DNA of 64,000 bases from Nitrospirota bacterium (GCA_963790205.1 CAWBNQ010000011.1:1-64000), one strand, 5' to 3'; shown: positions 16,599 to 35,214, counted from the stretch's first letter. Program-made: numbers and translations. The notes: generated by a model from the sequence alone, not told the origin.

Positions 16599-16641
16599 AT
16601 TGACAATCCTAAAATAAAGCGACTCGGAATAAAAGCTATTA

Positions 16642-16714: not shown

Positions 16715-16721
16715 AAGATCT

Positions 16722-18413: not shown

Positions 18414-18634
18414 TCCGAGCTTGTGTGTTCAAGAAGCAGCAGCGAAAAATGCCCTGCAATATTATAGGGTTATCCCGCTCCACTCTGTAAGCCGTCATCA
18501 CAATTTTTAAGGGGTTTGGAAGTCGTTTTTAGATGGCGCCGGGCTTGTTTCCGCATTTTCAACGGCAAGTGAATGACGAAAACCGGATCGGGCTGATCTT
18601 ATGCCCGATGTCGTATTTTAAGGATGAATCATTT

Positions 18635-19369
18635 ATGGCAGCTGGTACAAAAAAGATCGCACTCGTTATCGGCGGCAGCAGGGGGATAGGGCGCGCCATT
18701 GCCGTGCGCCTGGCACGTTCCGGTTTTCATATCTGGCTCACCTATAAAGGGAACCATGAAGCGGCTGGAAACGTGAAAGCTGCAATAGAATCCCTCGGCA
18801 GCACCTGCGAGCTCATCCCTTTCGATGTGTCCAGTTTTGAGGAGACCGAAGCCGCCTTAAGCGGACGCCTGGAAAACGCATCTCCCGAAGTCCTCGTGTA
18901 CAATTCGGGGATCTCCAGGGACAACCTCCTGATGTGGATGACCAAGGACGAGTGGAACTCGGTCCTCTCCACGAACCTTGATGGCTTCTTCAACGTGGCC
19001 CGCGCTGTGGTCTTCGCCATGCTTAAGGCAAAGCGAGGCCGGATCGTTATCGTTTCATCCGCTTCGGGCCAGATCGGCCAGGCCGGCCAGGTCAATTACT
19101 CCGCTTCCAAGGCCGGACTGATCGGAGCGGCCAAAGCACTCGCGCGTGAGGTAGGGAAAAAGAGCATCTACGTCAATGTGGTAGCTCCCGGTTTTATCGA
19201 AACGGAGATGACGAGGGGCATTCCGAAAGAACAGGTCTTGCCGCTGATCCCCTTGAACCGCGTGGGCACGGCGGACGATGTGGCTTCGGTCGTGAATTTT
19301 CTGTGCACCGATGAGCACATGTATATTCACGGCCAGGTAATCGGCATTAACGGCGGGCTGGCAATGTAG
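18635..19369 (+). CDS. fabG: 3-oxoacyl-ACP reductase (FabG / ApeQ-like)
   Basis: GGSRGIG, NYSASKAG (YxxxK), NVVAPGFIETEM, INGGL; start placed at ATG 18635. Confidence 0.92.
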   Translation: MAAGTKKIALVIGGSRGIGRAIAVRLARSGFHIWLTYKGNHEAAGNVKAAIESLGSTCELIPFDVSSFEETEAALSGRLENASPEVLVYNSGISRDNLLMWMTKDEWNSVLSTNLDGFFNVARAVVFAMLKAKRGRIVIVSSASGQIGQAGQVNYSASKAGLIGAAKALAREVGKKSIYVNVVAPGFIETEMTRGIPKEQVLPLIPLNRVGTADDVASVVNFLCTDEHMYIHGQVIGINGGLAM

Positions 19370-19519: not shown

Positions 19520-21010
19520 ATGAAAAAGTATGACGATATCGTGGTGGGGAGCGGCATCAGCGGGCTGACGATGTCGCTGCTGCTCGCCATGAACGGACAT
19601 AAGGTGCTGCTGATCGAGAAAGGTCCGCGCATCGGCGGCTCCCTGTCGCGGTTCTCCAGGCGCGGCATCGCGTTCGATACGGGGTTCCATTTTACGGGCG
19701 GGCTGCACGACGGCGGGATTCTGGCCGACATCCTCTCGTTCCTCGGCATCCGCGACGTTATCGAGCCGGTCTATTACTCCGAGGAATTCAAAAACCAGTT
19801 CATCTTCGAATCGGCCGGCCGCCGGCTTGAACACCCGAGCGGGATCGATAACATCAAAAAGCAGTTCAAAGGGTATTTCCCCGGCGATGCAGACGCCATC
19901 GATCGGTATTTTGAGAAGGTCCAATCCGTCTGTCGCCGGACCCCCTCGCTCAATATTCATGAGAACGTTATCGCATCACCGGGCCTGGACGAAGATTACA
20001 TCAGTTTAGATGCCGTTTTGAAGGGCCTGACATCGAATGGGCTCCTTCGGGGGCTGTTGTCCGCCTATGCTATGTGCTACGGCGTGAAGCCGTCGGAAAT
20101 CTCCTTTGCCAACCACAGCAGGATGGCCCTCAGTTTTTATGAATCCTTTGCCTGTGTCAAACAGGGCGGGGACGCCTTTGTGAAGGCCTTTGAGGAGAAG
20201 TTCAAGGAGCATGAGGTCGAGGTACGCTGCGGGACCTTTATTTCGGAGCTGGCGGACATCAGCGATCACAAGGTGGGGCGGTTCGTTTTGAACACGGGTG
20301 ATGAAGTGGCGGCTGACGCCTGCGTGATGACCATCCATCCCCGGGAGATGCTGAAGCTCCTTCCCGCAAAACAATTCAGCAGGGCCTTTATGAGCCGGGC
20401 TGAGTCCTTCGAACCTTCAGTGGGTTTTTTCACCGTCTTCGGTCTGCTCAAACCGGGCGCGAACGACCCCTATCCGGATTCGGGCGTCACCTCCCTCTTC
20501 CCGAATGAGGATGTGAACCTGCTGCTTGATCCCGCGTACCGGGGAGAGCCCGCCCTGGTCATCATCAAGTCGCCGGAGCAGAACGACGAAGGACGGGGGG
20601 TCTGTATCCTTGAGCCTTCCTTTGCCGAGCACGTTTCCGCCTGGACCGCATCCCGCAGGGGGCAAAGGCCCGCAGAATATCGTGAATACAAGAACCGGAA
20701 GGTCGAGGCGATCAAAGACCATGTGTATAAGGTGCTCCCCGCATACCGGGAGAGCCTCGAGCTTGTGGATGCGGGGTCCATGTTGACCTTTAAGGATTAT
20801 CTGAACAGCCCGGATGGAAGCGCCTATGGCGTGAAGCAGAAAATGGGGCAGTTCAATATCATCGGCAAGCTCCGCCTGCATAATCTTTACGTCGCGGGCC
20901 AGAGCGCGCTTTTACCGGGGATCATCGGCGCTATGATGTCGTCGCTCATCGTCGGCAGGCAGATGCTTGGAAAAGAGCAATACGGCAGGCTCCTGGCAGG
21001 GACGGCATGA
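19520..21010 (+). CDS. FAD-dependent oxidoreductase, phytoene desaturase / retinol saturase-like
   Basis: VVGSGISG, FSRRGIAFDTGFHF, LTFKDY..SPDGSAYG, NLYVAGQS..PGIIG. Confidence 0.85.
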   Translation: MKKYDDIVVGSGISGLTMSLLLAMNGHKVLLIEKGPRIGGSLSRFSRRGIAFDTGFHFTGGLHDGGILADILSFLGIRDVIEPVYYSEEFKNQFIFESAGRRLEHPSGIDNIKKQFKGYFPGDADAIDRYFEKVQSVCRRTPSLNIHENVIASPGLDEDYISLDAVLKGLTSNGLLRGLLSAYAMCYGVKPSEISFANHSRMALSFYESFACVKQGGDAFVKAFEEKFKEHEVEVRCGTFISELADISDHKVGRFVLNTGDEVAADACVMTIHPREMLKLLPAKQFSRAFMSRAESFEPSVGFFTVFGLLKPGANDPYPDSGVTSLFPNEDVNLLLDPAYRGEPALVIIKSPEQNDEGRGVCILEPSFAEHVSAWTASRRGQRPAEYREYKNRKVEAIKDHVYKVLPAYRESLELVDAGSMLTFKDYLNSPDGSAYGVKQKMGQFNIIGKLRLHNLYVAGQSALLPGIIGAMMSSLIVGRQMLGKEQYGRLLAGTA

Positions 21011-22233
21011 CCTTGAAGCGGGTTGTGATAACCGGGATCGGCGTTGTTTCTCCTTTCGGGAACGGCGTCCCCGAACTCATGAACGGGATCGCGGAAGGCA
21101 GGAGCGGCGTGCGGCGGATGGAAGGGTGGGAAGAGTACGTTGGCCTGCGCAGTCTCGTCGGAGCGCCCGTTGAAATGCGGGATGAAAAACGCATCCCGCG
21201 CCAGAAGCGGCGTTCCATGGGGCGGATGAGCATCTTTGCCGCGCAGGCGGCTGATGAAGCGCTGGCCGACTCCGGCATCGACCTCGCGAAGGAAGATCTC
21301 TGGAGAATCGGCTGCGTCATCGGTTCGACCATGGGCAGCGCCAAAAGCATCAACGACGCCTTCGAGCTCATGCTGCCGAACAAGGACCTGAGCCTGCTGA
21401 ACTCGACCATGTTTTTTCAATGCATGTCGCACACCGCGGCGGTGAACGTGGCGCAGTATCTGGGGCTCAACGGCTCGATCATGGCGCCGGCCGCCGCCTG
21501 CGCTTCGGCGCTCCACGCCCTCGGCACGGGCTATGATCTGATCAGGCTCGGGAGGCAGGACGTGCTGCTGTGCGGAGGCGCGGAGGAATTGCATCCGACC
21601 GTGACCGGGTCTTTTGATATTCTGTACGCCACGTCGTCAAAATACAACGACCGGCCGCGGTCGACGCCGCGGCCGTTTGACAAGGACCGCGACGGCCTGG
21701 TGTGCGGCGAGGGGAGCGGTCTTCTGGTCCTTGAGGACCGCGAGCGCGCGGTCAAGCGGAATGCCCGTATGTACGCCGAGGTGACGGGGTTCAGCACCAC
21801 GGCGAACGGCCAGCACGTGAGCCAGTCGAACAAGGAATCGATGGTCGTCTGTATGCGGCAGGCGCTTCGGGATGCCGGGGCGCAGGCGGGCGGAATTGAT
21901 TATATAAATGCCCATGCAACGGCCACGATCCAGGGAGACCAGGAAGAGGCCGAGGCGATACGCGAGGTCTTCGGCGAAACGGTCCCGGTGAGCAGCCTGA
22001 AGGGGTACATCGGTCACACGCTCGGAGCTTCGGGCGCCATAGAACTGGCGGCTTCCCTCAAGATGATGGAACAGGACGTCATCTATCCGACGTTGAATCT
22101 TGAAAACGTGAGCCCTGAATGCGGTGGCATTCGCCACGTGATGCGGCCGCTGAAAAAACAAATGACAACGATACTCAAGAACGGTTTTGCCTTCGGCGGC
22201 ATCAATGCCGCGCTGGTGTGTAAAAAAATATAA
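21007..22233 (+). CDS. Beta-ketoacyl-ACP synthase KS1 (FabB/F, ApeR-like)
   Basis: Cys-His-His triad: AACAS, NAHATAT, KGYIGHTLGASG; FAFGG. Confidence 0.95.
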   Translation: MTLKRVVITGIGVVSPFGNGVPELMNGIAEGRSGVRRMEGWEEYVGLRSLVGAPVEMRDEKRIPRQKRRSMGRMSIFAAQAADEALADSGIDLAKEDLWRIGCVIGSTMGSAKSINDAFELMLPNKDLSLLNSTMFFQCMSHTAAVNVAQYLGLNGSIMAPAAACASALHALGTGYDLIRLGRQDVLLCGGAEELHPTVTGSFDILYATSSKYNDRPRSTPRPFDKDRDGLVCGEGSGLLVLEDRERAVKRNARMYAEVTGFSTTANGQHVSQSNKESMVVCMRQALRDAGAQAGGIDYINAHATATIQGDQEEAEAIREVFGETVPVSSLKGYIGHTLGASGAIELAASLKMMEQDVIYPTLNLENVSPECGGIRHVMRPLKKQMTTILKNGFAFGGINAALVCKKI

Positions 22234-22239
22234 GCACTA

Positions 22240-22350
22240 AAATACAAACACCAAATGACCAATAAACTCCAAGCACGAAATACGGAATTCAAGACGTTTT
22301 GATTTTGCGGTTTGGGAATTGGATATTATTTGTGATTTGGTATTTGAAAT
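22240..22350. repeat. Inverted heptamer arrays (AAATACC / TTTGGTA-like)
   Basis: AAATACAAACACCAAATGACCAATAAACTCCAAGCACGAAATACGG ... TTTGGGAATTGGATATTATTTGTGATTTGGTATTTGAAAT. Confidence 0.7.
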
Positions 22351-22367
22351 GTTCACCGGGGGAATGC

Positions 22368-22634
22368 ATGACCGAGCAGGAGATTATCGATAAAACGAAC
22401 AAGGTGTTCGAAGAGTCCTTTGAGATCGAAAAAGAGAAGCTGACGCCCCAGGCGCAAATCTTCACCGATCTCGGGCTGGACAGCCTTGATATCGTGGATC
22501 TGGTCGTAGCGCTCCAGGGCGCCTTCGGCGTCAAGATCAGGAACGAGGAGCGGGTCAGGGACATCAGGACACTGCAGGACATCTATCAGTTCATTTCCTC
22601 CCTGAAGAACGAGGAAGGCAAGAAGAGCTCATAG
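22368..22634 (+). CDS. Acyl carrier protein ACP1
   Basis: DLGLDSLDIVDL; acidic, 88 aa. Confidence 0.95.
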   Translation: MTEQEIIDKTNKVFEESFEIEKEKLTPQAQIFTDLGLDSLDIVDLVVALQGAFGVKIRNEERVRDIRTLQDIYQFISSLKNEEGKKSS

Positions 22635-22639
22635 AGGCG

Positions 22640-23389
22640 GTGTGTCAGGTGAAACTGTTCTTTCTGAATCTCTATTTTTACACGTTCTTTTTCCTGCTGT
22701 CCGCGATCGGGATCCCGATACTCACGCTTGGCGTGGCGACTTCGAGGCTCTTCCTGTCGCACCGGCAGACCATGAAGCGCTTCCGCCGTGCCATCAGCTG
22801 GTACGGCAGGATCATCACGGCGATCCCCTATCCCTTCATCAAGCTGCAGTACGAGGACTGCGGATCAAAGGACACCGGTGAGCCGTACATCTTTGTCTGC
22901 AATCATCGCGCAGCATCGGACGCATTCCTCATGTGCGTGCTGCCCCATGAGGTCGTCCAGATCGTGAACGTCTGGCCGTTCAGAATCCCGGTCCTAGGCA
23001 TCTATGCGAAGTTCTCAGGATACCTGAACATCAGGATGATGTCGCCTGAACAGTTCACGGAGAAAGCGAAGGGGCTTTTGTCAGAGGGCGTCAATATCAT
23101 CTTTTTCCCCGAGGGGACGCGGTCGGCCAGCAGGACCATGGGCAGCTTCCACGGAGCGGCATTCAGGCTTGCGCTTGAATCAAAGGCTTCGATCGTTCCG
23201 CTTTGCATCTCGGGGAGTGAAAATATTCCGCCCAAGGGGTCGCTGCTCCTGCGGCCCGGCACGATTCGCGTACGCAGGTTGTCCGCCATCACCTGGGAAG
23301 AATACAAGGATCTGAACGCCTTTGCGTTCAAAAACCGGGTACGGCATATCATCGATAACGAGCTGTCCGTCATGGAGAGCGGTGTATGA
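22640..23389 (+). CDS. PlsC-like acyltransferase (ApeD-like)
   Basis: CNHRAASD (HxxxxD), FFPEGTRS. Confidence 0.9.
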   Translation: MCQVKLFFLNLYFYTFFFLLSAIGIPILTLGVATSRLFLSHRQTMKRFRRAISWYGRIITAIPYPFIKLQYEDCGSKDTGEPYIFVCNHRAASDAFLMCVLPHEVVQIVNVWPFRIPVLGIYAKFSGYLNIRMMSPEQFTEKAKGLLSEGVNIIFFPEGTRSASRTMGSFHGAAFRLALESKASIVPLCISGSENIPPKGSLLLRPGTIRVRRLSAITWEEYKDLNAFAFKNRVRHIIDNELSVMESGV

Positions 23390-24696
23390 ACAACGGTAAA
23401 TTCGACGGGGACGGGAACCTGGAGTTCTCCAGTCCGGAGGAGATCGGGCAGGCGCAGGAAGCGCTGCTCCAGGAGCACGTGCGCTATCTTGCCTCGCAGT
23501 CGCCCTATTACCGCGAGCTTTTTAAGGCCCGGGGGATCGAGCCGGCAGAGATCACGATGGCCACGCTGCATCAGCTCCCGTTCACGGACAAGACGGTTCT
23601 TGGCCAGCAGAACGACGATTTTCTGGCAGTGCCCCGGTCCGAGATCGTGGACATGGTCCTGTCGTCCGGCACGACCGGTAAGCCGACGACGATGATGTAT
23701 ACGGAAAACGATCTTCGGCGCCTGGCCTACAATGAGAAAATATCGTTCATGAGCTGCGGCTTGACGCGGGACGACGTGGTCCTGCTCACGTGCACGATGG
23801 ACCGCTGCTTCATCGCGGGCCTGGCGTATTTTTCCGGCGTGCGGAGCGTGGGCGCCGCGGCGATCAGGAACGGCCTCAACAGTGTTGAAAGCCATCTCGA
23901 AATCATCCAGCGTCTGAGGCCGACGGCGGTCGTGGGCGTGCCGTCGTTCCTGCTGAAGCTTGGGAACTTCATGAAAGCGCAGGACATCGATCCGCACCGG
24001 TCCGGCATCAGAAGGCTGATCTGCATCGGCGAGCCGACCAGGGACCGTAACCTCGCGCTTCTGCAGCTGGGGGAAAGCCTCGAAGCGGTCTGGGGCGCGA
24101 AGACATACTCGACCTATGCGGCCTCGGAAACCATTACCTCGTTCTGCGAGTGCGCCGCCCAGCGGGGCGGACACCTTCACCCCGACCTCGCGGTCATTGA
24201 GATCGTGAACGAACAGGGAGCGGCGCTTCCGCACGGCGAGATCGGCGAGGTCGTCATAACGCCTCTGGCCATTGAGGGCATGCCGCTGCTGCGGTTTAAA
24301 ACCGGAGACATGAGCTTTCTTATCGATGAACCCTGCTCGTGCGGGAGGTATTCTCCCCGCCTCGGTCCCGTCGTCGGGAGAAAGAAGCAGATGATCAAGT
24401 TCCGCGGCACGACGCTGTATCCGAACTCGATCTATGCGGTCCTCGATTCGTTTCCGGAGATCAGCGAATACTACGTTACCGCAACCAGCGATTACGACCT
24501 GTCCGATATTGTGAAGGTCTCTGTCGCGGTGAAGGACGGTTCCTGCAAGGCCGAAACGATCATGGATAAGCTCCAGGCTCATCTGCGGGTGCGTCCCGAA
24601 GTGATCATCACCAGCGAGGAAAGCGTGAAGCAGCAGGTCTACTCCGGGAATTCCCGGAAATTAATCCGTTTTATCGACAAGAGAAAGAGCCTATGA
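23386..24696 (+). CDS. Phenylacetate-CoA ligase-like adenylating enzyme
   Basis: SSGTTGKP, TYAASE, GEVVITPL..EGMPLLRFKTGD, CSCGR, GRKKQMIKFRG. Confidence 0.88.
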   Translation: MNNGKFDGDGNLEFSSPEEIGQAQEALLQEHVRYLASQSPYYRELFKARGIEPAEITMATLHQLPFTDKTVLGQQNDDFLAVPRSEIVDMVLSSGTTGKPTTMMYTENDLRRLAYNEKISFMSCGLTRDDVVLLTCTMDRCFIAGLAYFSGVRSVGAAAIRNGLNSVESHLEIIQRLRPTAVVGVPSFLLKLGNFMKAQDIDPHRSGIRRLICIGEPTRDRNLALLQLGESLEAVWGAKTYSTYAASETITSFCECAAQRGGHLHPDLAVIEIVNEQGAALPHGEIGEVVITPLAIEGMPLLRFKTGDMSFLIDEPCSCGRYSPRLGPVVGRKKQMIKFRGTTLYPNSIYAVLDSFPEISEYYVTATSDYDLSDIVKVSVAVKDGSCKAETIMDKLQAHLRVRPEVIITSEESVKQQVYSGNSRKLIRFIDKRKSL

Positions 24697-26177
24697 ATAC
24701 CTGTCAAAGCCGTATTTACGGCGCGGAGTTCTCCAAGGAGGAGATCGCCGAGGCCGTCCGGGACGGCAAACTGCTGTCCATGGAAATCGAGTTCAACAGC
24801 GTCTGCAATTTTCGCTGCGTCTACTGCTACGCGGCCGAAAACGGCGGCCGCCGGAATGAACTGACTCCCGAAGAGTTCTGGGATGTGATAACCCAGGCGA
24901 AAGAGCTGGGAGCGCGAAAGATGATCGTCCTCGGCGGCGAACCGATGCTCTATCCCCCGATCCTCGAGATGATCCGGTACATCAGAGACCTCGACATGGA
25001 TGTCGAACTCTTCACGAACGGTACGAACATCACGCGCGAGATGGCCCGGACGCTGTATGACCTCGGCGTGCGCGTAGTTCTCAAAATGAACACCTTCGAG
25101 GAAAAGATCCAGGACATGCTTTCGGGCAGGAAAGGCGCCTACGCCCAGATCCACGAGGCGTTCAACAACCTGAAACAGGCCGGCTATCCGTCGGCGGACC
25201 GTTTCATGGGCATCAGCACCGTTGTCTGCCAGCAGAATATTGACGAGCTTCCGAAGATGTGGGAGTGGCTGAGGGACCAGCACATCGCTCCTTATTTCGA
25301 GATGATAACCCCGCAGGGAGGCGCCAAAGAGCACAATATGCTCGAAGTCGATTCCCGGCAGGTGGAGGAATTGTTCTGCCGGATATCCCGGATCGATCGG
25401 ACCAAGTACGGCCACCAGTGGGACCCCAAACCGCCGCTCGTAGGAGGGGAGTGCCTTCGCCACCAGTTCTCCTGCGCCGTGAACTCCGTAGGAGAGGTAC
25501 AGCCCTGCGTCGGGGTGACGATCCCGATCGGCAACGTGCGCAAGCAGCGGCTCAAGGACATCCTCAAGGACAGCGAGGTGGTCCAGGATCTCAAGAGCTA
25601 TAAGGAGATGATCAAGGGGCCCTGCAGCGAATGTGACCGGTTAAGCGCGTGTTACGGATGTCGCGGTGCGGCATACCAGATGACCGGCGACTATCTCGCC
25701 TCGGACCCCCTGTGCTGGAAAAATCTCGACCGGCGCGACGATATCATGTTCCTGCCCGTGGACGCGGCCCAGCTCGTTCCTCACAAGCCGCCCATGCTCC
25801 TGATCGATCGTCTCCTCGAGGTCAAGGAGCGGGCATCCCTGTCAGAGATGACGGTGCGGGAGGACATGGTGTTCGTGGGAGAGGACGGGAAGCTTGATGA
25901 TGCCGCCTATGCCGAGGTCCTCTCCCAGGCCATCGCCGCACAGGAAGGGTTCCGAAAGCTCGGAAGCCGTGACCCTCAGCAAGAAGGTTTTTTGCTCGGC
26001 ATCAAGAACCTCGAGATCCTCGGCAGCGCCCGCATCGGCGATACCCTGCGCATATCAGTGTTTAAGGCCGCGAAGTTCGGAGATTTCGGCATTATCCGGG
26101 GAGAGGTCAGAAACGGTGACGCCCGGATCGCCCGCGGTGAGGTGAAGGTTTGGCAGAGCGACGGAAAGGCGAAATGA
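24693..26177 (+). CDS. Radical SAM/SPASM enzyme fused to a C-terminal hotdog dehydratase (ApeP-like)
   Basis: CNFRCVYC, GGEP, SPASM cysteines (CSECDRLSACYGCRG..DPLC), then LVPHKPPMLLIDRL..EVLSQAIAA..GFLLGIK. Confidence 0.88.
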   Translation: MNTCQSRIYGAEFSKEEIAEAVRDGKLLSMEIEFNSVCNFRCVYCYAAENGGRRNELTPEEFWDVITQAKELGARKMIVLGGEPMLYPPILEMIRYIRDLDMDVELFTNGTNITREMARTLYDLGVRVVLKMNTFEEKIQDMLSGRKGAYAQIHEAFNNLKQAGYPSADRFMGISTVVCQQNIDELPKMWEWLRDQHIAPYFEMITPQGGAKEHNMLEVDSRQVEELFCRISRIDRTKYGHQWDPKPPLVGGECLRHQFSCAVNSVGEVQPCVGVTIPIGNVRKQRLKDILKDSEVVQDLKSYKEMIKGPCSECDRLSACYGCRGAAYQMTGDYLASDPLCWKNLDRRDDIMFLPVDAAQLVPHKPPMLLIDRLLEVKERASLSEMTVREDMVFVGEDGKLDDAAYAEVLSQAIAAQEGFRKLGSRDPQQEGFLLGIKNLEILGSARIGDTLRISVFKAAKFGDFGIIRGEVRNGDARIARGEVKVWQSDGKAK

Positions 26178-26863
26178 TGATGAGGAAGATAAGAACGAGG
26201 GCACTCCTTTCTTCGGCCCTGGGCATCCTCCTGTTGTTGGCCGGAGCGGTTTTCGCGGAGGATATCAACAAGGGCGGAGCTCCGGGACCAGCGGACCTGC
26301 CGGCATTCCTGAACAGCCTCGGTAAAAAGGTCTCGGCTTTCAAGACCCTCAAAACGGATTTTACCCAGGAAAAAGAGATGGCGATGTTCAAGGAGAAGCT
26401 CGTGCTCACGGGCAGGATCTATCTCCAGAAACCCAACAAGGTCGCCTGGCATGTGGACAAGCCGCTCCGCTATTCCGTCCTGATCACCGACAAGTTTATA
26501 CGTCAATGGGACGAGGACACGAACCAGGTGCAGGAAATATCGTTAACAAAGAACCCTCTCTTTCAGAACGTGATCAAGCAGCTGACGGTCTGGTTTTCCG
26601 GAGAGTACGGTTCGCTCCTCGACACCAATGATGTGCGGTTGGTGCAACAGAACCCTCTCGTGCTGGAGTTTTCGCCCCGCGCCAATAACGACTCCCGGAA
26701 GGTCATTAAGACCATTACGATCACGTTCCGGGAAGATGAGACTTATTTGCAGCAGATACGGATCCGGGAACTGAGCGGCGATGTCACGACGATTCATTTC
26801 ACGAACACAATTTTGAACGCCCCTCTCGACAGCAGCAGCTTTGAGGTAAAAGGGCATGTTTGA
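26174..26863 (+). CDS. LolA-like lipid carrier (ApeL-like)
   Basis: Signal peptide; FTQEKEM..LTGRIYLQKPNKVAWHV; GDVTTIHF. Confidence 0.85.
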   Translation: MMMRKIRTRALLSSALGILLLLAGAVFAEDINKGGAPGPADLPAFLNSLGKKVSAFKTLKTDFTQEKEMAMFKEKLVLTGRIYLQKPNKVAWHVDKPLRYSVLITDKFIRQWDEDTNQVQEISLTKNPLFQNVIKQLTVWFSGEYGSLLDTNDVRLVQQNPLVLEFSPRANNDSRKVIKTITITFREDETYLQQIRIRELSGDVTTIHFTNTILNAPLDSSSFEVKGHV

Positions 26864-29246
26864 CAGGTATTTTACCCGGCTGCACCAGTTCGTGTTCCAG
26901 CATAAGAAATGGGTTCTCGGGATCGTCCTCCTCGCGACTGTTGCTGCCGGGGCCGGGCTCTCCTTTGTCCGCTACGAAGGCAATATTGACATCATGCTCC
27001 CGCCGGACAAGGAGGTCAGCCGGAGCCTGAACTTTCTCCGGGATGCAAGCCTTTCGGACAAGATACTCATTTCCCTGGAGCTGACGGATCCCGCAAAAAA
27101 CAAGAAGGACCTTTTCCTCGCCGTTGACCAGCTTGCGTCAACACTGAAGCCTCCGCTCTTCACCAAAGTCATGTCCGGCTTCTCGGTGGCCGATGTCATG
27201 GAAGAGTTCTCCATCCTGCGCTATGCGCCCCAGATCCTGAGCGGGCAGGACCTCGCATCCATCGACAGCCAGATCAACAAAACGACGGTGGCCCAGAAGA
27301 TGCGGGGCATCTACCGGCAGGCGCTCAGGCCCGAGAGCATTTTCATGACCTCGCTTTCGCGCACGGACCCGCTCGGGATCAAACTGCTTCTCCTCGACAA
27401 GTTACGGGCGCTGCCCGCGTCCATGGGGTATGACGTTGCCATCGAGGACGGTCACTTCATCAGCCGCGACGGCCGCCATGCCATGATGATCATCCAGACC
27501 TCGGTCCCGATGATGGACAGCCAGCGGAGCAAGAAGCTCATCGCCCTCCTGCAGGAGCAGCTCAAACAGCTGCCCGCATTCGTTTCCGCCGACATTATCT
27601 GCGGCCACCTCCACACGGTAAGCAATGAGCAGGTGATCAAACACGATATTATGGTCGCTTCCGTCATCGCGTCCATTGCCTTTCTTGTTTTCTTCACGAT
27701 CATCTTCCGCGATTTCCGGGCGATCTTCGTCTTTATCCTTCCCCTGATCGCGGTTGCCTGGGCAATCATCATCTCCACCGCGCTTGAGGGGAGACTGTCG
27801 TATCTGGTCATCGGGTTCGGGACCGCGATTGCGGGCATCTCGATCGATTACGGCCTCCTCGTGTACATCGCGATGAAACGCGGCGCCGACGCCTCGCAGA
27901 CCGCGAAACTCGCCCGGCTGGTCATCATCGACGCGGTTACGACCATGTTCAGTTTTTTCGTGCTGTATTTTTCCCGGATACACGGGTATCACCAACTGGC
28001 GCTGTTCTCGATGCTGTGCGTCTTCATCTGTCTCATTTTATCTCTTTTCGTATTGCCCCTGACGCTGTCCTGGAAAAACTACACCCTGGTCTCGGACCCC
28101 ACGATCGGCGACCGGATGCGGAAGGTGCGATGGCCGGCTCGCCTCAGCGTCGGGATCTGGGCGGTCCTCACGGTCGCGGCGCTGGTCCTGTCGTTCTCCG
28201 TCCAATTCGACAGCGATGTCAAAAAACTGGACGGCAGCGCTCCTGAAGTGCTCCAGGCGGAGCAGCGGTTTCACGAAGTCTGGGGCGGAAAGACCAACCA
28301 GGCGATCTTGGTCGTGACCGGGAAGAGTTATGAGGACGCCATGGAGAAGAACGATCTCATTTTTCGCGACGCCGTGAAGGCCGTCGGGCCGCAGAACATT
28401 TCAAGCATTGCGCTGTTCTGGTCCTCGGAAAAGATGCGCACGGGAAACAGCGAGCGGTGGGACCGTTTTTGGAAACAGGGAAGGGAGCAGAAGCTGAAGA
28501 AGCTGATCCGTGCGACGTCCTCCTCCTACGGTTTTTCGGAAAGCGCCTTTCAACCGTTCTTCAACGGTCTGTATTCCCATCCGATCGACGCAGCGAGCAC
28601 AAACGGGCTCGTTGCACGATTGCAGGAACGCTTTGTCGTGAACAAGGACGGCGAATACCGTATCATGTCCTTTTTCCCCGATGATCAGAAATACGTTGAT
28701 TCCCTCACGGCGGTAGCCGGGAAGTACCCCGGCACGTTCATCGTATCCGGCCGGGTTTTATCTGCTTCCATCTCCGCGTTCACGTCAAGGGAAATGAAGG
28801 TACTTGCCCCTCTTGCCGTCCTGTTCAACGTTGTGCTTGCGTGGCTGTTCTTCAGGAACTGGAAGGAAACGTTGATCGCCCTCGTGCCGGTCGTCACCGG
28901 GGTCATCTGGCTCGTCGGTATCATGTCGCTCTTCAAGATGCCGCTCAATGTTGTCAATATTGTGGCTGCGATCGTCACGACCGGCGTCATCGTGGATTAC
29001 GGCCTCGGCATCACCTATGAATACCGGTACAACCTGCGCATCGGGACCGTCATTGCCGTGACGTTGTCCGCGGGGGCCAACGTGATCGGTTCCGGCGCGC
29101 TGCTGTTCGCCAAACATCCGGCGCTCTATTCCACCGGCGTCGCCATGGTCATCTGCATGGTCTCCGGATACCTGTCTTCCGTGATCGTGATCCCGTCCCT
29201 GTGCAGCCTTCTGGGAACGGCGAAGCAGGAGGGGCGGCAGCAATGA
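26856..29246 (+). CDS. MMPL/RND-family exporter (ApeM-like)
   Basis: Two TM bundles with GISIDYG and GVIVDYG; HPALYSTG. Confidence 0.88.
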   Translation: MFDRYFTRLHQFVFQHKKWVLGIVLLATVAAGAGLSFVRYEGNIDIMLPPDKEVSRSLNFLRDASLSDKILISLELTDPAKNKKDLFLAVDQLASTLKPPLFTKVMSGFSVADVMEEFSILRYAPQILSGQDLASIDSQINKTTVAQKMRGIYRQALRPESIFMTSLSRTDPLGIKLLLLDKLRALPASMGYDVAIEDGHFISRDGRHAMMIIQTSVPMMDSQRSKKLIALLQEQLKQLPAFVSADIICGHLHTVSNEQVIKHDIMVASVIASIAFLVFFTIIFRDFRAIFVFILPLIAVAWAIIISTALEGRLSYLVIGFGTAIAGISIDYGLLVYIAMKRGADASQTAKLARLVIIDAVTTMFSFFVLYFSRIHGYHQLALFSMLCVFICLILSLFVLPLTLSWKNYTLVSDPTIGDRMRKVRWPARLSVGIWAVLTVAALVLSFSVQFDSDVKKLDGSAPEVLQAEQRFHEVWGGKTNQAILVVTGKSYEDAMEKNDLIFRDAVKAVGPQNISSIALFWSSEKMRTGNSERWDRFWKQGREQKLKKLIRATSSSYGFSESAFQPFFNGLYSHPIDAASTNGLVARLQERFVVNKDGEYRIMSFFPDDQKYVDSLTAVAGKYPGTFIVSGRVLSASISAFTSREMKVLAPLAVLFNVVLAWLFFRNWKETLIALVPVVTGVIWLVGIMSLFKMPLNVVNIVAAIVTTGVIVDYGLGITYEYRYNLRIGTVIAVTLSAGANVIGSGALLFAKHPALYSTGVAMVICMVSGYLSSVIVIPSLCSLLGTAKQEGRQQ

Positions 29247-29917
29247 AACGATTTTTCCTGATAACTCTTCTGGCGGCGCTTGCAGCCGGCTGTGTACGCG
29301 TGCCTTTTCAGGAGACGGCACTGGTCTCCCTTGGGTCCGGGGACCCGCAGAGCATTGTGAAGCGTTTCCAGGAGAACGCGCCGGAAAATTACCAGTTGCT
29401 CAGCACCGTTGTTTTTGAGTATAATTGGCGAAAATTTTCCGCCCTCAGTACTGTACAGATAAACAGGGAGGACCACGTTTTCAAGGTCGCCGGCATGAAC
29501 CCCATGGGCGTGATGCTGTTCGAGTTCTCCGGCAATCAAGACAGCGTGACAACGCAGTATGCGATCGCCGCATTCACCCGGTACGGAGATATTGCATCGG
29601 CCGTGGGAAACGATATCAGACGTATCTATTTTGATCTGGTCCCCGCTCCGGAAGCGACGATCTGGAAGGGAAAGTATAAACTGATTTTTCGGCAATCATC
29701 CGGTCCCGGCTTTCTGGAGTATGTGTTCGCCGGGAGGGACGGCGACCTTATTGAAAAGAACTATTATGAAAACAACGGGCTCGCGTGGCGCGTTTCGTAC
29801 TACGAATACCGTGATCAGGACGGGAAACGATGTCCGCAGGGTGTTGTCCTCACTCACTACGATTACCGGTACCGGTTGACGGTAAGGCATAAGGAGTTCC
29901 GTTTTGAGCACAATTAA
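29243..29917 (+). CDS. Lipoprotein, DUF3261 / ApeN-like
   Basis: Lipobox LAAGC; GMNPMGVMLFE, DIRRIY; position directly after the MMPL gene. Confidence 0.7.
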   Translation: MKRFFLITLLAALAAGCVRVPFQETALVSLGSGDPQSIVKRFQENAPENYQLLSTVVFEYNWRKFSALSTVQINREDHVFKVAGMNPMGVMLFEFSGNQDSVTTQYAIAAFTRYGDIASAVGNDIRRIYFDLVPAPEATIWKGKYKLIFRQSSGPGFLEYVFAGRDGDLIEKNYYENNGLAWRVSYYEYRDQDGKRCPQGVVLTHYDYRYRLTVRHKEFRFEHN

Positions 29918-30293
29918 AGCAGAGATCGAACGCTACATGACCGGCCGGACGAAGGAAGGGAAGACAGCGATGTCCTGCTTCGTATTCCCCGCTGAATTTA
30001 TCGGTTTTCAAGGCCACTTCCCCGAGAAGAAGATCCTGCCGGGTGTTTGTCAGATCCAATGCGCGCTCTCCACGTTTGAAAAGGGGACCGGAAAGGCCGT
30101 GGTCTTGAAAGAGGTCGTGCTCGCAAAGTATTTCTCACCCGTGTTCCCGAATGACGAAGTGACCTGTGTCGTAAACGACCCGGGGGATACCGGCAGTGCG
30201 TTCACCGTAAAAGCGGTCATCACAAAAAATACCGTCAAAATCGCGGAACTGAAGCTGAGGCTCTCTTTTGCGGACCGGGACGGCAACCCCTAG
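29904..30293 (+). CDS. 3-hydroxyacyl-ACP dehydratase (FabZ / ApeI-like)
   Basis: FQGHFPEKKILPGVCQI, KYFSPVFP. Confidence 0.88.
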   Translation: MSTIKAEIERYMTGRTKEGKTAMSCFVFPAEFIGFQGHFPEKKILPGVCQIQCALSTFEKGTGKAVVLKEVVLAKYFSPVFPNDEVTCVVNDPGDTGSAFTVKAVITKNTVKIAELKLRLSFADRDGNP

Positions 30294-30294
30294 G

Positions 30295-30780
30295 ATGAGG
30301 ACGAGAAAAAAAACAACCTATTTCGATCGGGTCCCGGACTCACCCGAGCCCCTCGTGGTGGAGATGAAAAGACGGGTCCGCTTTAATGAGGCCGATCCCA
30401 TGGCGATCGTATGGCACGGCAGGTACCCGCTCTTCTTTGAAGAGGCTTCCGAAGAGCTCGGCAGGCTTTGCGGCATGTCCTACAAGGAATTCTTCGAGGC
30501 GGGAGTCAGGGCGCCCGTCGTGGAACTGCATATCGATTATTTTCAGCCCCTGTTCCTTGATGAGGAGTTCACCATCAAGGCATCGCTCATCTGGCACGAA
30601 GGCTCGCGCATGAACACGGAATACCAGCTGATCAAACAGAATGGGAGTCTCGCCACGAGCGGATACATGGTGCAACTCTTCAGCGATCACCGGACCGGCG
30701 AGGCCTATATCGTATCGCCGGAGTTGCTCGAACGATGCCGCGAGAGATGGAAGGCGGGGGAGTTCCATCGCAAACCATGA
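30295..30780 (+). CDS. 4HBT-family thioesterase (ApeK-like)
   Basis: VRFNEADPMAIVWHGRY..FFEEA. Confidence 0.88.
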   Translation: MRTRKKTTYFDRVPDSPEPLVVEMKRRVRFNEADPMAIVWHGRYPLFFEEASEELGRLCGMSYKEFFEAGVRAPVVELHIDYFQPLFLDEEFTIKASLIWHEGSRMNTEYQLIKQNGSLATSGYMVQLFSDHRTGEAYIVSPELLERCRERWKAGEFHRKP

Positions 30781-31892
30781 AGCCGGTCGTGGTGATGGCA
30801 GAGATGGTGACCCCCTATGGCAAGGGTACCGACGCATGCTGGAAAGGATTGCTTTCGGGGCAGAGCGCCATTTCCCGCGTCGAGCGTTTCAAGACCGCCG
30901 CGTTCCAGTCGGACTATGCGGGGATCATCGGCGGCCTGCGGTATCACGGGCGGACATCCCTGGTCATGCAGATGCTGCAATCGCTCTTCGAAGGCGTGGT
31001 CCTCCCCGAAGACGCAAAGCTGCTGCTGGCCACGACCAAAGGGGAAATCGACCTGCTTGAACAGAGTATGCTTCAGAACAGGGGAGATGTCTCGGACGCG
31101 GTTATCAGCCGCCTCATCGACAAGGTTGCCGATCTAACGGGCACGCGGGGCGGCGGGCTGGTGTTATCGGCGGCATGCACATCATCAGCCGCGGCGGCGG
31201 CACAGGCGGCGGCAATGATCCGGAACGGACACACGGACTGTGTGCTCGTGGCCGCCTGTGACAGCGTCACTGAGTTCATTTTTTCCGGGTTTTCCACGCT
31301 CAGTGCCCTGGACGATCAGCCGGCACGGCCTTTTGACAGAAACAGGGCAGGCCTGAATGTGGGCGAGGCCGCGGCCTTTGTTCTTCTGATGAGCGACGAA
31401 CGGGCAGTACGCGAAAACCGTCCTGTTCTCGGGACGCTGGCGGGATGGGGCCTGAGCGATGACGCGAACCACATGACGGGCCCGTCCCGCGAAAGTGAAG
31501 GCCTGATTCTGGCCATTCGGAAGTCGCTGGTCTCTGCGGACATCGGTCCCGACGATATCGGCCTGATCGCCGCGCATGGCACCGGGACCGTGTACAATGA
31601 CCAGATGGAGATGCGGGCCTTTCGCGCGGTCTTTCAGAACAGGGAGCGACCGGTATATTCCATCAAGGGCGGCATCGGCCATACCATGGGCGCTGCGGGG
31701 CTCGTGGAAATGATCATCGCGCTTCGTGCGCTCCGGGAGCAGATCGTTCCTCCCACCGTGAACCTGAGGGAGCCTGACGACAACGCCCGCGGCTGGGCTT
31801 CTGGCCAGACGCAGGCGGTACGCGAACGCGCGCCGGGGCTGGTGACGAATGCCGGGTTCAGCGGCGTGAACACGGCGCTGGTGCTGGCATGA
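30777..31892 (+). CDS. Beta-ketoacyl synthase KS2
   Basis: SAACTSS, AAHGTGT, KGGIGHTMGAAG. Confidence 0.92.
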   Translation: MKPVVVMAEMVTPYGKGTDACWKGLLSGQSAISRVERFKTAAFQSDYAGIIGGLRYHGRTSLVMQMLQSLFEGVVLPEDAKLLLATTKGEIDLLEQSMLQNRGDVSDAVISRLIDKVADLTGTRGGGLVLSAACTSSAAAAAQAAAMIRNGHTDCVLVAACDSVTEFIFSGFSTLSALDDQPARPFDRNRAGLNVGEAAAFVLLMSDERAVRENRPVLGTLAGWGLSDDANHMTGPSRESEGLILAIRKSLVSADIGPDDIGLIAAHGTGTVYNDQMEMRAFRAVFQNRERPVYSIKGGIGHTMGAAGLVEMIIALRALREQIVPPTVNLREPDDNARGWASGQTQAVRERAPGLVTNAGFSGVNTALVLA

Positions 31893-32578: not shown

Positions 32579-33847
32579 GTGAAGATCAAACTTATTTATC
32601 CAAAGTGGCCGAAGCTGGAACGGCAGACCGAGTTCCATCTGCCGCCGCATGGTCCGATCTGTTTCGCCGCCACGGTGCCCGGGGACCATGAACTTGCCTT
32701 CATCGATGAGCATGTCGAAGACATCGATTTCGACGAAAATACGGACCTGGTGGCCATTTCCTGCATGCTTACCTGCCAGATCCCGCGGGGGTGGGAGATC
32801 GCCGACCAGTTTCGGGCGCGCGGGATCCCCGTCATCTTCGGCGGCATCGGCACGATGCTCCATGCAGAGGAAACCAGGCAGCATGCAGATGCGGTGTTCC
32901 TCGGAGAGGCCGAAGGCCGTTTCAGCGCGGTCATCAATGATCTGCGGAACAAGAACCTGAAAAAAGTATACGACTACCAGTGGAACTTTCCCGACATGAG
33001 CGTGGTGGGGCCTGCGCGGCGGAACATACTCAATCGGGAGCGCTACAACTATCGCGGTGTGCAGATGGTGGACCTTATTCACGCGTCGCGCGGCTGCCGG
33101 TTCAATTGTTTCCCCTGCTGTACGCCGTACCTCGGGGGGCGCGAGTTCCGGCCCCGCCCGATAGACGATGTCGTCAAGGAGATCGAGTCCATTGATAATA
33201 ACCGTCTGTTCTTTGTGGACAACTCCATGGCCCAGAACGATCAGTGGGAAAAGGACCTGTTCAAGGCGCTGATCCCGCTCAAGAAAAAATGGGTCTGTCA
33301 TCCCATCAAGGACAATGACGAGATACTGGACCTTGCCGCCGAAGCCGGATGCTGGTACGTGTACCAGGCCATCTTTGACACGTCGGACCATATCCGGAAC
33401 AGGGTGAAGCGCTTGCAGGACCGCGGCATCGGTGTCGAGGGGACGATCATCCTCGGCACGGACGAGCAGAACGAGGATTATATCAAGCGGCTCGTCGATT
33501 TTCTGCTCGAGATCAAACTGGATCTGGCTGAATTCACGATCCTGACGCCATTCCCTCATTCGCCGGTCCGTGATTCGCTCGAAAAAGAGGGCAGGATCCT
33601 GACAAATGACTGGCGCCGGTACACGGGCGGCGATGCAGTGTTTCAACCGGCACAGATGACGGCGGCGAAGCTGCAGGAACTTTATTATTACGCCTGGGAC
33701 ACGTTCTACAACGAAACCAGCCAGAATCTCAGAATGGCCAAGCTTTTCCTGAAGGTCATGGAGAAGGAAAAGACCGATGGAACGTACCGGGGGGCAAATC
33801 TCAGGCGCAGGAAATGGCAGAAAGAAAAGACGGGGATAGAAAAATGA
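32579..33847 (+). CDS. B12-binding radical SAM enzyme
   Basis: N-terminal B12-type domain (VIFGGIG, GEAEG), SRGCRFNCFPC, FVDN, LTPFPHSP. Confidence 0.88.
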   Translation: MKIKLIYPKWPKLERQTEFHLPPHGPICFAATVPGDHELAFIDEHVEDIDFDENTDLVAISCMLTCQIPRGWEIADQFRARGIPVIFGGIGTMLHAEETRQHADAVFLGEAEGRFSAVINDLRNKNLKKVYDYQWNFPDMSVVGPARRNILNRERYNYRGVQMVDLIHASRGCRFNCFPCCTPYLGGREFRPRPIDDVVKEIESIDNNRLFFVDNSMAQNDQWEKDLFKALIPLKKKWVCHPIKDNDEILDLAAEAGCWYVYQAIFDTSDHIRNRVKRLQDRGIGVEGTIILGTDEQNEDYIKRLVDFLLEIKLDLAEFTILTPFPHSPVRDSLEKEGRILTNDWRRYTGGDAVFQPAQMTAAKLQELYYYAWDTFYNETSQNLRMAKLFLKVMEKEKTDGTYRGANLRRRKWQKEKTGIEK

Positions 33848-35214
33848 AGGTGCTGCTTATCTCAGCCAACGTGACCTTGTCACCGTACCCGCTGTACCCT
33901 CTTGGGGTGAGCATCATCGCTGCCGCGCTCACCAAGGCCGGGCACGAGGTGCGGCAGGCTGACTTCCTGATGCAGAACACCTCGCTTGAAGCAATCGGCC
34001 GGGAGGTCCGGGAGTTCAACCCCCGCCTTGTCGGCATATCGGTGCGCAACATCGATAACGTAAACTTCATGAACGAGCAGTATTACATCCAGAACGTCAA
34101 AAACCTTGTGAGCACGGTCAGGGGCATCACGGACGCTAAAGTCCTTCTCGGCGGTGCGGGTTTTTCCCTGATCCCCGACCTGATCCTGAAGGAGACCGGG
34201 GCTGATTACGGCATCATCGGAGAAGGCGAAGCCCTGGTGGTCGAGTTCGCAAAGAACGCGGAAAAGGGGACCTACCCTGTTGAACGACTCCTTGGATCGA
34301 ACACACGGCTCACCGGCGACCAGATCGGCTCGGCGCTGTATGACGAGCGGCTTCTCGAGTTCTATCTCCACAGCGGCAACATCGCTTCCATTCAGACCAA
34401 GCGGGGGTGCACCTATAAATGCGTGTACTGCACCTATCCCGTGCTCGAAGGGGCCCGGCTCCGCAGGAGAGAGCCGTCTGCGGTCGTCGATGACATCCTG
34501 CTGCTTCGGGACAGGTTCAAGACCAAGTACATCTTCTTCGTTGATTCCGTGTTCAATGACGACGAGGGCGCCTACCTCGAGGTGGTCGATGAAATGCTGC
34601 GCCGCGGCGTCAGCATCCCCTGGACGGGTTTCTTCAAGCCCGGAGGGCTCACTGACGAGACCGTCGAGCGCATGAAAAAGACCGGGTTCGTGGCGGCAGA
34701 GGTCGGCGCCGACGCGGCCTGCGACAGGACGCTCAAAAAGATGGGGAAGAGCTTTACCTTCCGCGATATCGTGGAGTGCAACAACCTCTTCGTAAAACAC
34801 GGCATCGCCACGTCGCATTTCTTCATGTTCGGCGGTCCGGGAGAGACGCCGGACACGGTAGAGGAGGGGATCAGGAACATCCTGGCCCTTCAAAAGTGCG
34901 TCGTATTCATCTTCATGGGGATCCGGATACTGCCGGACACGGCGCTCGCACGGCTGGCGGTCAAGGAGGGCCTGATCTCGGCCGGGGACGGGCTGCTCAA
35001 ACCCGTCTATTACCTCTCTCCGCTGGTTGACAAAAAATGGCTGGAGGACAGGCTGACCGCGGCATTCGCCAATGTGCGGCACTGCGTATTCCCGCCCGAT
35101 GCCATGGACAGCAGCCTCCAGGTCCTGCATAAGCTCGGATACACCGGTCCCATGTGGGACCTGCTCCTGCCGGGTAAAAAAACCAGGGAAAGGGTGCGGC
35201 ATGGCGCCAAGTAG
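33844..35214 (+). CDS. Lipid-biosynthesis B12-binding radical SAM enzyme (TIGR04072-like)
   Basis: PYPLYPLG, ISVRNIDN, QTKRGCTYKCVYCTYP, FVDSVFN, GGPGET, GIRILPDT, LLKPVYY. Confidence 0.85.
   Translation: MKVLLISANVTLSPYPLYPLGVSIIAAALTKAGHEVRQADFLMQNTSLEAIGREVREFNPRLVGISVRNIDNVNFMNEQYYIQNVKNLVSTVRGITDAKVLLGGAGFSLIPDLILKETGADYGIIGEGEALVVEFAKNAEKGTYPVERLLGSNTRLTGDQIGSALYDERLLEFYLHSGNIASIQTKRGCTYKCVYCTYPVLEGARLRRREPSAVVDDILLLRDRFKTKYIFFVDSVFNDDEGAYLEVVDEMLRRGVSIPWTGFFKPGGLTDETVERMKKTGFVAAEVGADAACDRTLKKMGKSFTFRDIVECNNLFVKHGIATSHFFMFGGPGETPDTVEEGIRNILALQKCVVFIFMGIRILPDTALARLAVKEGLISAGDGLLKPVYYLSPLVDKKWLEDRLTAAFANVRHCVFPPDAMDSSLQVLHKLGYTGPMWDLLLPGKKTRERVRHGAK

Follow-up and report, generated by a model that had tools for sequence, protein, structure and literature searches.

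Conserved fusion of a radical SAM/SPASM enzyme with an ApeP-like half-dehydratase in a lipid gene cluster of Nitrospirota and other phyla

In a 64,000-nucleotide stretch of DNA from a Nitrospirota bacterium (GCA_963790205.1, CAWBNQ010000011.1:1-64000), hereafter the window, one open reading frame (ORF) at 24693..26177 on the plus strand encodes a radical S-adenosylmethionine (SAM) enzyme with a SPASM domain that is fused to an ApeP-like hotdog domain. The fusion is conserved within one syntenic lipid cluster in anaerobes of several phyla. There is good support that the hotdog domain is one half, the one bearing the Glu, of the only dedicated dehydratase in the cluster, and that it forms a rigid covalent unit with the radical SAM enzyme. 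The explanation favoured here, at a confidence slightly above even, combines this conserved fusion of a radical SAM/SPASM enzyme and a His-less, Glu-bearing ApeP-type half of a dehydratase for 3-hydroxyacyl chains on acyl carrier protein (ACP) with a predicted pairing to a separate ApeI-like protein, the radical domain probably modifying an acyl chain on the cluster's own ACP.

Domain structure of the fusion protein

ORF listing and translation of 24693..26177 revealed a single frame of 494 residues on the plus strand, with no internal stops. Both the radical SAM core and the SPASM domain exceed the cut-offs of their Pfam models (Table 1). The CX3CX2C triad is intact (C38/C42/C45, encoded at 24804-24827), as it is in 216 of 221 nearer homologues, and the GGE SAM-binding motif is present in the alignment block GGEPMLYP. 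Eight SPASM cysteines follow (C254, C261, C272, C311, C314, C320, C323, and C341), which are predicted to be enough for two auxiliary [4Fe-4S] clusters. No other feature is conserved as well as these cysteines in an alignment of 90 sequences, with C311 and C341 invariant and C254, C272, C314, C320, and C323 occurring in at least 90%.

The best NCBIfam models for the radical SAM half all scored far below their cut-offs, i.e., AhbD (TIGR04545) with 149.1 versus 500 bits and NirJ2 (TIGR04055) with 140 versus 500 bits, followed by PqqE (111 versus 381 bits) and TIGR04053, which likewise remained under the cut-off. Membership in the AhbD, NirJ, PqqE, and sactisynthase families is ruled out by these scores, and as judged from its sequence the radical SAM half is a family of its own. 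An earlier reading of the window made from the sequence alone (the sequence-only reading) had assumed that peptides or proteins are the usual substrates of SPASM enzymes; this places no constraint on the present enzyme, since its best matches, each far under the cut-off, are the models of the tetrapyrrole enzymes AhbD and NirJ2. Tetrapyrrole genes were absent from the Pfam scans of the cluster genes.

The C-terminal hotdog is matched over the whole domain by the FabZ model NF000582 (E 2.1e-6). Its closest solved relative by phmmer was 6qsr_B (E 2.6e-6), chain B of the PDB entry 6QSR, 'The Dehydratase Heterocomplex ApeI:P', and a profile built from 90 family members recovered 6qsr_B at 1.1e-19 as the sole hotdog chain at or below 1e-8. 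The AlphaFold2 model of the fusion features a predicted local distance difference test (pLDDT) score of 93.1 and a predicted template modelling (pTM) score of 0.91, with linker blocks at 95-97. Its hotdog superimposes on 6qsr_B with a TM score of 0.79 and a root-mean-square deviation of 2.6 Å over 144 columns, and its N-terminal two thirds resemble SkfB, SuiB, PqqE, BlsE, and anSME. According to this model the fusion would be a rigid two-domain body. The single frame, the Pfam matches, the matches to 6qsr_B, and the AlphaFold2 model confirmed the claim of the sequence-only reading that one unbroken ORF joins a radical SAM-SPASM enzyme to an ApeP-type hotdog.

Conservation of the fusion

All 120 homologues of at least 71% identity among the matches listed comprise 487-499 residues and carry PF22817 in a precomputed Pfam column of unspecified threshold, the direct counterpart of which fell under the cut-off here; the named members among them are Nitrospirota. 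In species genomes (one genome per species), relatives of the fusion were found in at least 589 of 598 candidate stretches. Counts of species-genome loci rest on the best 80 of the 589 relatives, with 53-85% identity, and all 80 of these kept loci are fused, query residues 1 to about 490 being covered except in two loci cut by a contig end. By record title, 42 belong to Nitrospirota, 11 to Omnitrophota, and 10 to Thermodesulfobacteriota, the remaining ones including Deltaproteobacteria, Planctomycetes, Verrucomicrobiota, and Deferribacteres. A 17-gene order recurs in these loci and barely changes, running from ketoreductase (KR) and CrtI-like desaturase through the first ketosynthase (KS1), ACP, PlsC, ligase, fusion, LolA, MMPL, DUF3261, ApeI-like protein, thioesterase, second ketosynthase (KS2), chain-length-factor-like (CLF) protein, and the B12-binding radical SAM proteins B12a and B12b to the glycosyltransferase GT2. 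Most of 80 metagenome loci show the same uninterrupted frame. Besides, two host-associated metagenome contigs (L176, titled human gut, and L177) carry the complete cluster, including an intact fused gene of 43% identity.

Within the own phylum the distribution is patchy, matches at E≤1e-30 being present in 37 of 301 genomes (29 of 63 in the own family). Full-length fusions account for 32 of the 37 matches, four are unfused, and one is split by a frame change. This last case, from the same family (G206:C12:285260-286739), contains the fusion gene in two overlapping frames covering residues 1-396 and 390-493 with 85-86% identity; the frame change lies within the hotdog domain and is a frameshift or a sequencing error. 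The domain-architecture survey that the sequence-only reading had proposed found a widespread fusion (120/120 listed homologues and 80/80 kept loci). Its counter-scenario of normally split homologues does not hold for this cluster type, the unfused orthologues occurring in other cluster types.

The split gene of G206 and the existence of 41 short hotdog-only proteins in the protein collection could be taken as signs of an artefact (missed stop, frameshift, or chimeric assembly) or of a decaying gene. Most of these short proteins are encoded on contigs no longer than about 1 kb and are thus cut genes; stand-alone hotdogs closely related to the fused domain are rare. Given that the same unbroken frame recurs in 80 of 80 independent species genomes, in most of the metagenome loci, and in all listed homologues, and that the AlphaFold2 model is confident through the linker, such an origin has a negligible probability. 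An assembly artefact or a missed stop is ruled out by the listed homologues, the species genomes, and the survey of the own phylum.

The predicted heterodimeric dehydratase

A FabZ-type active site is composed of the His of one chain and the Glu of the other. In an alignment to the FabZ chain 4h4g_A, the His of the FabZ GHFP motif stands opposite a non-His residue of the fusion, the residues 394-407 of which contain no His, and the FabZ Glu stands opposite E408, a residue shared by at least 90% of 31 divergent fused homologues. The ApeI-like protein encoded at 29904..30293 aligns GHFP on GHFP and features a Q at the position of the FabZ Glu. Among 50 ApeI-like orthologues H38 of the GHFP motif is invariant and Q52 nearly invariant. 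As the fusion has a non-His residue at the GHFP position and the partner lacks the Glu, neither chain unites both residues as a homodimeric FabZ does, and the fused hotdog, without GHFP His, remained below the equivalog cut-offs for homodimeric FabZ (TIGR01750/NF000582; 27.8 versus 113 bits). A PF22817 search of the own genome, which is 98% complete, revealed no second ApeP-like domain and recovered only the fused copy (17.9 bits). Sequence and model thus predict that the fused hotdog pairs with the separate ApeI-like protein. The gene of the latter with its GHFP..LPGV motif, noticed at 29904 in the sequence-only reading, is a real ORF of 129 residues. Passages of PMC8041823 describe ApeI and ApeP as a heterodimer with a single active site, in agreement with the heteromeric dehydratase that had been assumed, and mention that ApeI is fused to the ligase ApeH in A. 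baumannii.

An ApeI-like ORF was found downstream of the fusion in 51 of the 57 loci that extend for 5 kb or more on that side. In three homologues (P0143, titled Aminicenantes, P0164, and P0199) an extra C-terminal FabA/ApeI-like domain places both predicted partners in one chain with a radical SAM domain, or its triad-less form, and a SPASM domain. Besides, P0121 carries the LolA domain of the next gene.

A complex model of the full-length fusion and the ApeI-like protein, as had been suggested earlier as a check, reached an ipSAE of 0.81 in each of three runs compared with 0.01 for the best of three controls, although this pass may be memory of 6QSR. Among solved complexes 116 of 157 attain that mark, as do two of 215 mismatched pairs. 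The runs agree in at least 97% of the contacts, with a partner pLDDT of at least 86. Contacts on the side of the fusion are confined to the hotdog (residues 363-369, 392-397, 402-405, 407-408, and 434-442), and the radical SAM domain is therefore not placed on the dimer face.

Gene cluster around the fusion

Table 1. Features of the cluster and of the fusion gene, with positions in the window and the basis of assignment.
Feature	Position	Strand	Basis or remark
FabG/FlxB-like ketoreductase (cluster start)	18533-19369	+	family models
CrtI-like FAD desaturase	19520-21010	+	family models
KS1	21007-22233	+	family models
ACP1	22299-22634	+	family models
PlsC-type acyltransferase	22640-23389	+	family models
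PaaK/FlxY-type AMP ligase, directly upstream of the fusion	23386..24696	+	FlxY model 480.8 bits, cut-off 520
Fusion gene, radical SAM + SPASM + ApeP-like hotdog	24693..26177	+	494 aa; 4-base overlap with the stop of the upstream ligase gene
Radical SAM core, residues 33-191	24789..25265	+	PF04055, 99.3 bits, cut-off 29.5
SPASM domain, residues 254-345 (Pfam span 254-315)	25452..25727	+	PF13186, 33.1 bits, cut-off 21.5
ApeP-like hotdog, residues about 355-494	25755..26174	+	PHKPPMLLIDR at 363-373
LolA-like	26150-26863	+	family models
MMPL/RND transporter	26856-29246	+	family models
DUF3261	29201-29917	+	family models
ApeI-like hotdog, predicted partner of the fused hotdog	29904..30293	+	129 aa, TTG start, GHFP...LPGV
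4HBT thioesterase	30268-30780	+	family models
KS2	30735-31892	+	family models
CLF-like protein	31903-32577	+	family models
Two B12-binding radical SAM proteins, B12a/B12b (starts 32579 and 33814)	32579..35214	+	family models
GT2 glycosyltransferase	35072-36400	+	family models
LpxL-like acyltransferase	36372-37280	+	family models
HemN/ChuW-like radical SAM protein	37835-39205	+	TIGR04107, 183 bits, cut-off 400

The LolA-like, MMPL/RND, and DUF3261 genes (26150..29917) form an export block of the aryl polyene (APE) type between the fusion and the ApeI-like gene. The second B12-binding radical SAM protein (33814-35214) scores 623 bits, at a cut-off of 360, for TIGR04072, 'lipid biosynthesis B12-binding/radical SAM protein'. 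In total, the cluster covers about 35 kb (18533-53238 of the window) and features seven radical SAM proteins, i.e., the SPASM fusion at 24693, the B12-binding proteins at 32579 and 33814, the HemN/ChuW-like protein at 37835, the product at 43852, which is an alpha/beta hydrolase fused to a radical SAM-SPASM enzyme, and two further B12-binding proteins at 48790 and 51805. The cluster also includes another KS/CLF-like pair (40339-42581) and, at 50223, another AMP ligase. Just upstream on the opposite strand (13118-17396, minus), genes for a LolA_like/DUF1329 protein, a MacB-FtsX permease, and an ABC ATPase may form a lipoprotein or lipid export system beside the cluster.

Tyrosine ammonia-lyase and chorismate lyase families were not among the Pfam matches of the scanned cluster genes. 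With no such lyase family and six further radical SAM proteins, the cluster product is probably not a classical aryl polyene.

Unfused orthologues and triad-less relatives

Several observations speak against the favoured explanation, beginning with the family scores of both halves. The last 150 residues of the fusion, scanned alone, matched PF22817 (ApeP-like) only weakly (18.7 bits, E 1.4e-3, below the cut-off of 27), and the ApeI-like protein scored 20.3 bits for PF22818 (ApeI-like), below the cut-off of 28.5. In six of the 57 loci (L014, L029, L038, L056, L062, and L076) the ApeI-like ORF was not found. As the like complex 6QSR has been solved, the pass of the complex model may reflect memory and would then indicate likeness rather than binding. 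The proposed radical chemistry derives from the neighbouring genes and the fusion alone, and its location at the ACP docking site is a reasonable proposition.

Moreover, orthologues of the radical SAM-SPASM enzyme occur unfused in three other cluster types with 44-56% identity, and BLAST did not find an ApeI-like ORF in the unfused loci. Hence the radical SAM enzyme does not need the dehydratase. Four unfused loci of the own phylum (L090-L093, 44-46% identity) represent a Kuenenia-type cluster in the order deacetylase, KS, CLF-like protein, methyltransferase, KS, CLF, ligase, radical SAM-SPASM enzyme, B12 radical SAM protein, KR, ACP, 139-residue hotdog, ACPS, methyltransferase, MMPL, CrtI-like protein, and GT2. 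In one of them, the stand-alone 139-residue FabA-like hotdog (L091:14002-14421) contains GQF for GHF, i.e., no catalytic His, and keeps the Glu; a BLAST search of that locus revealed no His-bearing partner. In the phylum of locus L070 (G305), 26 of 401 genomes match, including three fused and 15 unfused forms with 46-56% identity, and the unfused contexts there are of two kinds, a minimal set and a window-like set without the block from LolA to KS2. The minimal set (L182-L185, L188, and L189) comprises GT2, an LpxL-like protein, ACP, KS, PlsC, a B12 radical SAM protein, and the unfused radical SAM-SPASM enzyme (52-56% identity) and features no own ligase, KR, or dehydratase. In the cluster type labelled B, the ORF after the unfused enzyme encodes a 228-residue protein ending in a C-terminal Phe, which by its sequence is read as outer-membrane-like and not as a hotdog.

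In all four cluster types the neighbours of the radical SAM-SPASM orthologue include genes for an ACP, for a ketosynthase, and for a B12 radical SAM protein, in most of them also for lipid acyltransferases. The succession KS1-ACP1-PlsC-X-radical SAM/SPASM is common to the cluster types A, B, and C, and its recurrence across contexts marks it as a separate module. The fusion gene of the window is located where this KS1-ACP-PlsC module meets the aryl-polyene-like block. For a gene at the junction of two conserved modules, the fusion of neighbours is a sufficient origin, and the link may only secure co-assembly.

A further difficulty arises from relatives without the triad. Homologue states were counted on representatives of 50%-identity clusters in a MAFFT alignment, which yielded 13 full-length fused forms with the triad, 21 full-length fused forms without it, and 72 unfused radical SAM-SPASM forms with it. 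The fused/intact class of the alignment held 17 rows, with four multidomain proteins dropped (their HMMER match ends near residue 343), and the triad-less class held 22 rows, with P0134 dropped (hotdog partly garbled). Thus 21 of 34 full-length fused representatives lack CX3CX2C and often GGE as well, yet keep most SPASM cysteines, E408, and the hotdog. The triad-less fused forms are P0132, P0136, P0137, P0141, P0144, P0146, P0148, P0157-P0160, P0164, P0167, P0172, P0188, P0191, P0199, P0202, P0204, P0215, P0261, and the one encoded at L157:10001-11431. With the triad lost, the N-terminal domain cannot cleave SAM in those lineages, yet it has been kept. A quick, unrooted tree of the radical SAM-SPASM region comprises 86 of 151 sequences, many of them of odd composition; fragments, multidomain proteins, and half of the unfused sequences are left out. 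In this tree, 49 of the 51 unfused sequences group together (approximate likelihood-ratio test 93), the loss of the triad needs at least three changes, and intact and triad-less forms occur as sister pairs. Accordingly, the SAM cluster was lost repeatedly while the domain was retained.

Besides, reduced forms of about 340-375 residues (P0155, P0177, P0193, P0198, P0203, P0208, P0240, L178:9270-10112, and L180:7792-8634) combine the eight SPASM cysteines and the hotdog with a short N-terminal stretch that cannot be aligned to the radical SAM core. In L178 and L180 no ligase gene lies between PlsC and the reduced form; both loci share gene order, ORF lengths, and percent identity and are therefore probably not independent. 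In P0172 an N-terminal PlsC acyltransferase is fused directly to the triad-less form. Across the metagenome scan, the phylum surveys, and the profile search, only L157, L178/L180, and the fused P0172 provide any genomic context for triad-less or reduced forms. The metagenome scan seeded with the triad-less alignment returned mostly intact forms, as did the profile search, and two phylum surveys centred on loci titled Planctomycetes led to one phylum of small genomes with intact or unfused forms only. Looking up the protein clusters supplied names for five of ten proteins and a taxon for two.

Taken together, the proposal of the sequence-only reading that radical chemistry is docked onto the elongation complex stood in part. 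Its architecture, the separate partner, and the predicted heteromeric dehydratase were upheld; the action on an ACP-tethered polyene during elongation and the polyene product were not, a strict coupling to such a chain being weakened by the unfused orthologues, by the frequency of triad-less representatives, and by the position at the module junction.

Proposed mechanism and alternative explanations

The prediction is a heterodimer held together by a continuous beta-sheet (residues 434-442 of the fusion with 67-76 of the partner), with one active site to which the ApeI-like protein would contribute His38 and the fusion Glu408. The radical SAM domain would be clear of this interface, packed rigidly on the other side of the hotdog. 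Docking on the dehydratase may place the radical SAM enzyme at the delivery point of ACP-bound 3-hydroxyacyl or enoyl intermediates, where reductive SAM cleavage would lead to the abstraction of a hydrogen atom from the chain or the starter unit and the two auxiliary clusters could handle an electron. From hydrogen abstraction and the passage of an electron to the auxiliary clusters, an oxidative reaction, e.g., desaturation or C-C bond formation, would be the most likely class. The constant company of ACP, ketosynthase, acyltransferases, and B12 radical SAM proteins suggests as substrate an acyl chain on ACP or one just transferred from it. A bolder version, in which the dehydratase heterodimer serves as a hub that hands fresh enoyl- or 3-hydroxyacyl-ACP directly to the attached radical SAM enzyme and the unfused anammox-type orthologue performs the same chemistry, is tentative and on balance doubtful. 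If true, this would be the first type II fatty acid synthase (FAS) or polyketide synthase (PKS) with on-line radical tailoring inside the elongation machinery, and would offer an entry point to the radical steps proposed for anammox-type lipid pathways.

The point at which the radical enzyme acts could also be an earlier one. As part of a loading module, it would act only once, on a starter unit loaded by the ligase onto ACP1 or on the acyl chain of KS1-ACP1-PlsC, rather than on the growing chain, and the fusion to the ApeP-like domain would do no more than tether it to the hub where ACPs dock, in the way that canonical aryl-polyene systems tether the ligase ApeH to ApeI; an ApeH-ApeI fusion is reported in passages of PMC8041823. 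The ligase gene stands directly upstream in 103 of 109 counted intact-triad loci and in all four unfused Kuenenia-type loci, and it is missing beside L157, the only full-length broken-triad form with context, as well as beside the reduced forms in L178 and L180. The direct fusion of PlsC to a triad-less form in P0172 and the KS1-ACP1-PlsC-X-radical SAM/SPASM module shared by types A, B, and C fit the same idea. Still, six type C loci feature an intact unfused enzyme and no ligase, which is at odds with a strict link between ligase and triad, and six intact-triad loci lack an adjacent ligase. Moreover, the degenerate forms with context number only three to four, including the probably non-independent L178 and L180, and related genomes are non-independent samples. 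The association of ligase and triad (103/6 versus 0/1, plus two reduced forms) therefore points to a role at the starter unit as a weak lead, and the loading-module explanation is considered possible but rather unlikely. Less probable again is that the conserved task of the N-terminal half is that of an Fe-S (SPASM) scaffold or an electron relay on the dehydratase, e.g., for the B12 radical SAM enzymes or the CrtI-like desaturase, with radical activity being ancestral or secondary. The better conservation of the SPASM cysteines than of the triad in the 90 sequences, the majority of triad-less forms among the fused representatives, the shrunken forms that retain SPASM and hotdog, and the retention of B12a and B12b beside degenerate forms would suit such a scaffold. 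However, P0146, P0159, P0191, and P0215 have lost auxiliary-cluster-I cysteines as well as the triad, no electron-transfer partner was identified, and the intact triad, shared with nearly all nearer homologues, and the GGE motif of the window protein argue, on sequence grounds, for an active enzyme here.

Comparison with known systems

The predicted arrangement, in which two different hotdog subunits share a single composite active site, resembles ApeI:ApeP of Xenorhabdus doucetiae (PDB 6QSR) and, according to passages of PMC8041823, of A. baumannii. The fused domain is nearest to 6QSR chain B by sequence, profile, and fold, and the protein at 29904 is nearest to ApeI-like/FabZ proteins, whereas both halves, unlike the ApeI:ApeP families, score below the Pfam cut-offs. 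Ligase, ACP, KS/CLF, KR, thioesterase, the LolA/MMPL/DUF3261 export block, GT2, and the LpxL-like acyltransferase are common to the window cluster and aryl-polyene clusters. The ApeH-ApeI protein of A. baumannii sets a precedent for a dehydratase half fused to another pathway enzyme, as far as described in the same source; in contrast, it is the ApeP half that is fused here, joined to a radical SAM/SPASM enzyme.

With AhbD, NirJ2, PqqE, SkfB, SuiB, anSME, and BlsE, the fusion shares CX3CX2C, GGE, the partial triosephosphate isomerase (TIM) barrel, and the SPASM cysteines for two auxiliary clusters. None of these SPASM/twitch enzymes is known to contain a hotdog domain, and the fusion has neither a peptide-recognition domain nor a precursor-peptide context.

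FAS-like clusters with radical SAM genes have been described as common to Kuenenia, Desulfotalea, Geobacter, and Pelobacter in passages of Rattray 2009 (PMC2649909), and the gene families of kuste3335-3352 of Kuenenia stuttgartiensis are given in Table 2 of Javidpour 2016 (PMC4790861), of which likewise only excerpts are drawn on. By these excerpts, the window cluster shares with the Kuenenia group a phytoene-desaturase-like protein, FabF paralogues, ACP, FabG, a PaaK-type ligase, two radical SAM genes, a glycosyltransferase, and a polysaccharide deacetylase. The gene families of L090-L093 follow the same order as Table 2 from kuste3351 down to kuste3335; the genes would thus be equated with particular kuste genes by gene order only, a comparison that does not include the Kuenenia sequences. 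In the Kuenenia-type cluster, unlike in the window, the radical SAM-SPASM enzyme is unfused and the dehydratase-like gene is the stand-alone 139-residue hotdog. The excerpts of PMC2649909 and PMC4790861 do not mention a hotdog fusion. TIGR04072, matched in the window cluster, is named for its lipid-biosynthesis context.

The closest functional analogy to radical chemistry during elongation is offered by the radical SAM cyclopropanase Jaw5, for which action on alpha,beta-unsaturated thioester intermediates during chain building by the iterative PKS Jaw4 was proposed, according to passages of PMC13459092. As described there, Jaw5 is HemN-like, not a SPASM enzyme, and not fused to a dehydratase; the separate HemN-like gene of the window (37835-39205) belongs to the same broad class.

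A published description or test of the fusion was not found in full-text searches, supplements being outside their scope. Precomputed Pfam columns already display this combination of domains, and publications on the cluster type date back to 2009. Added here are the triad-less and reduced variants, the homologues with a fused ApeI-like domain, the four cluster contexts, and the view of the fusion as a module junction.

Conclusion

To our knowledge, the modification of fatty-acyl (non-isoprenoid) lipids by radical SAM enzymes is almost unknown. The best clue so far to where one of the radical SAM enzymes of this cluster works is its covalent attachment to a carrier-protein-dependent dehydratase. 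The fusion and its 129-residue partner, together with ACP1 and the ligase, offer a small, expressible two-protein system, for which the triad-less variants and the unfused orthologues represent natural controls. If the radical SAM enzyme acts on ACP-bound chains, this would have a bearing on the related clusters of anammox bacteria.

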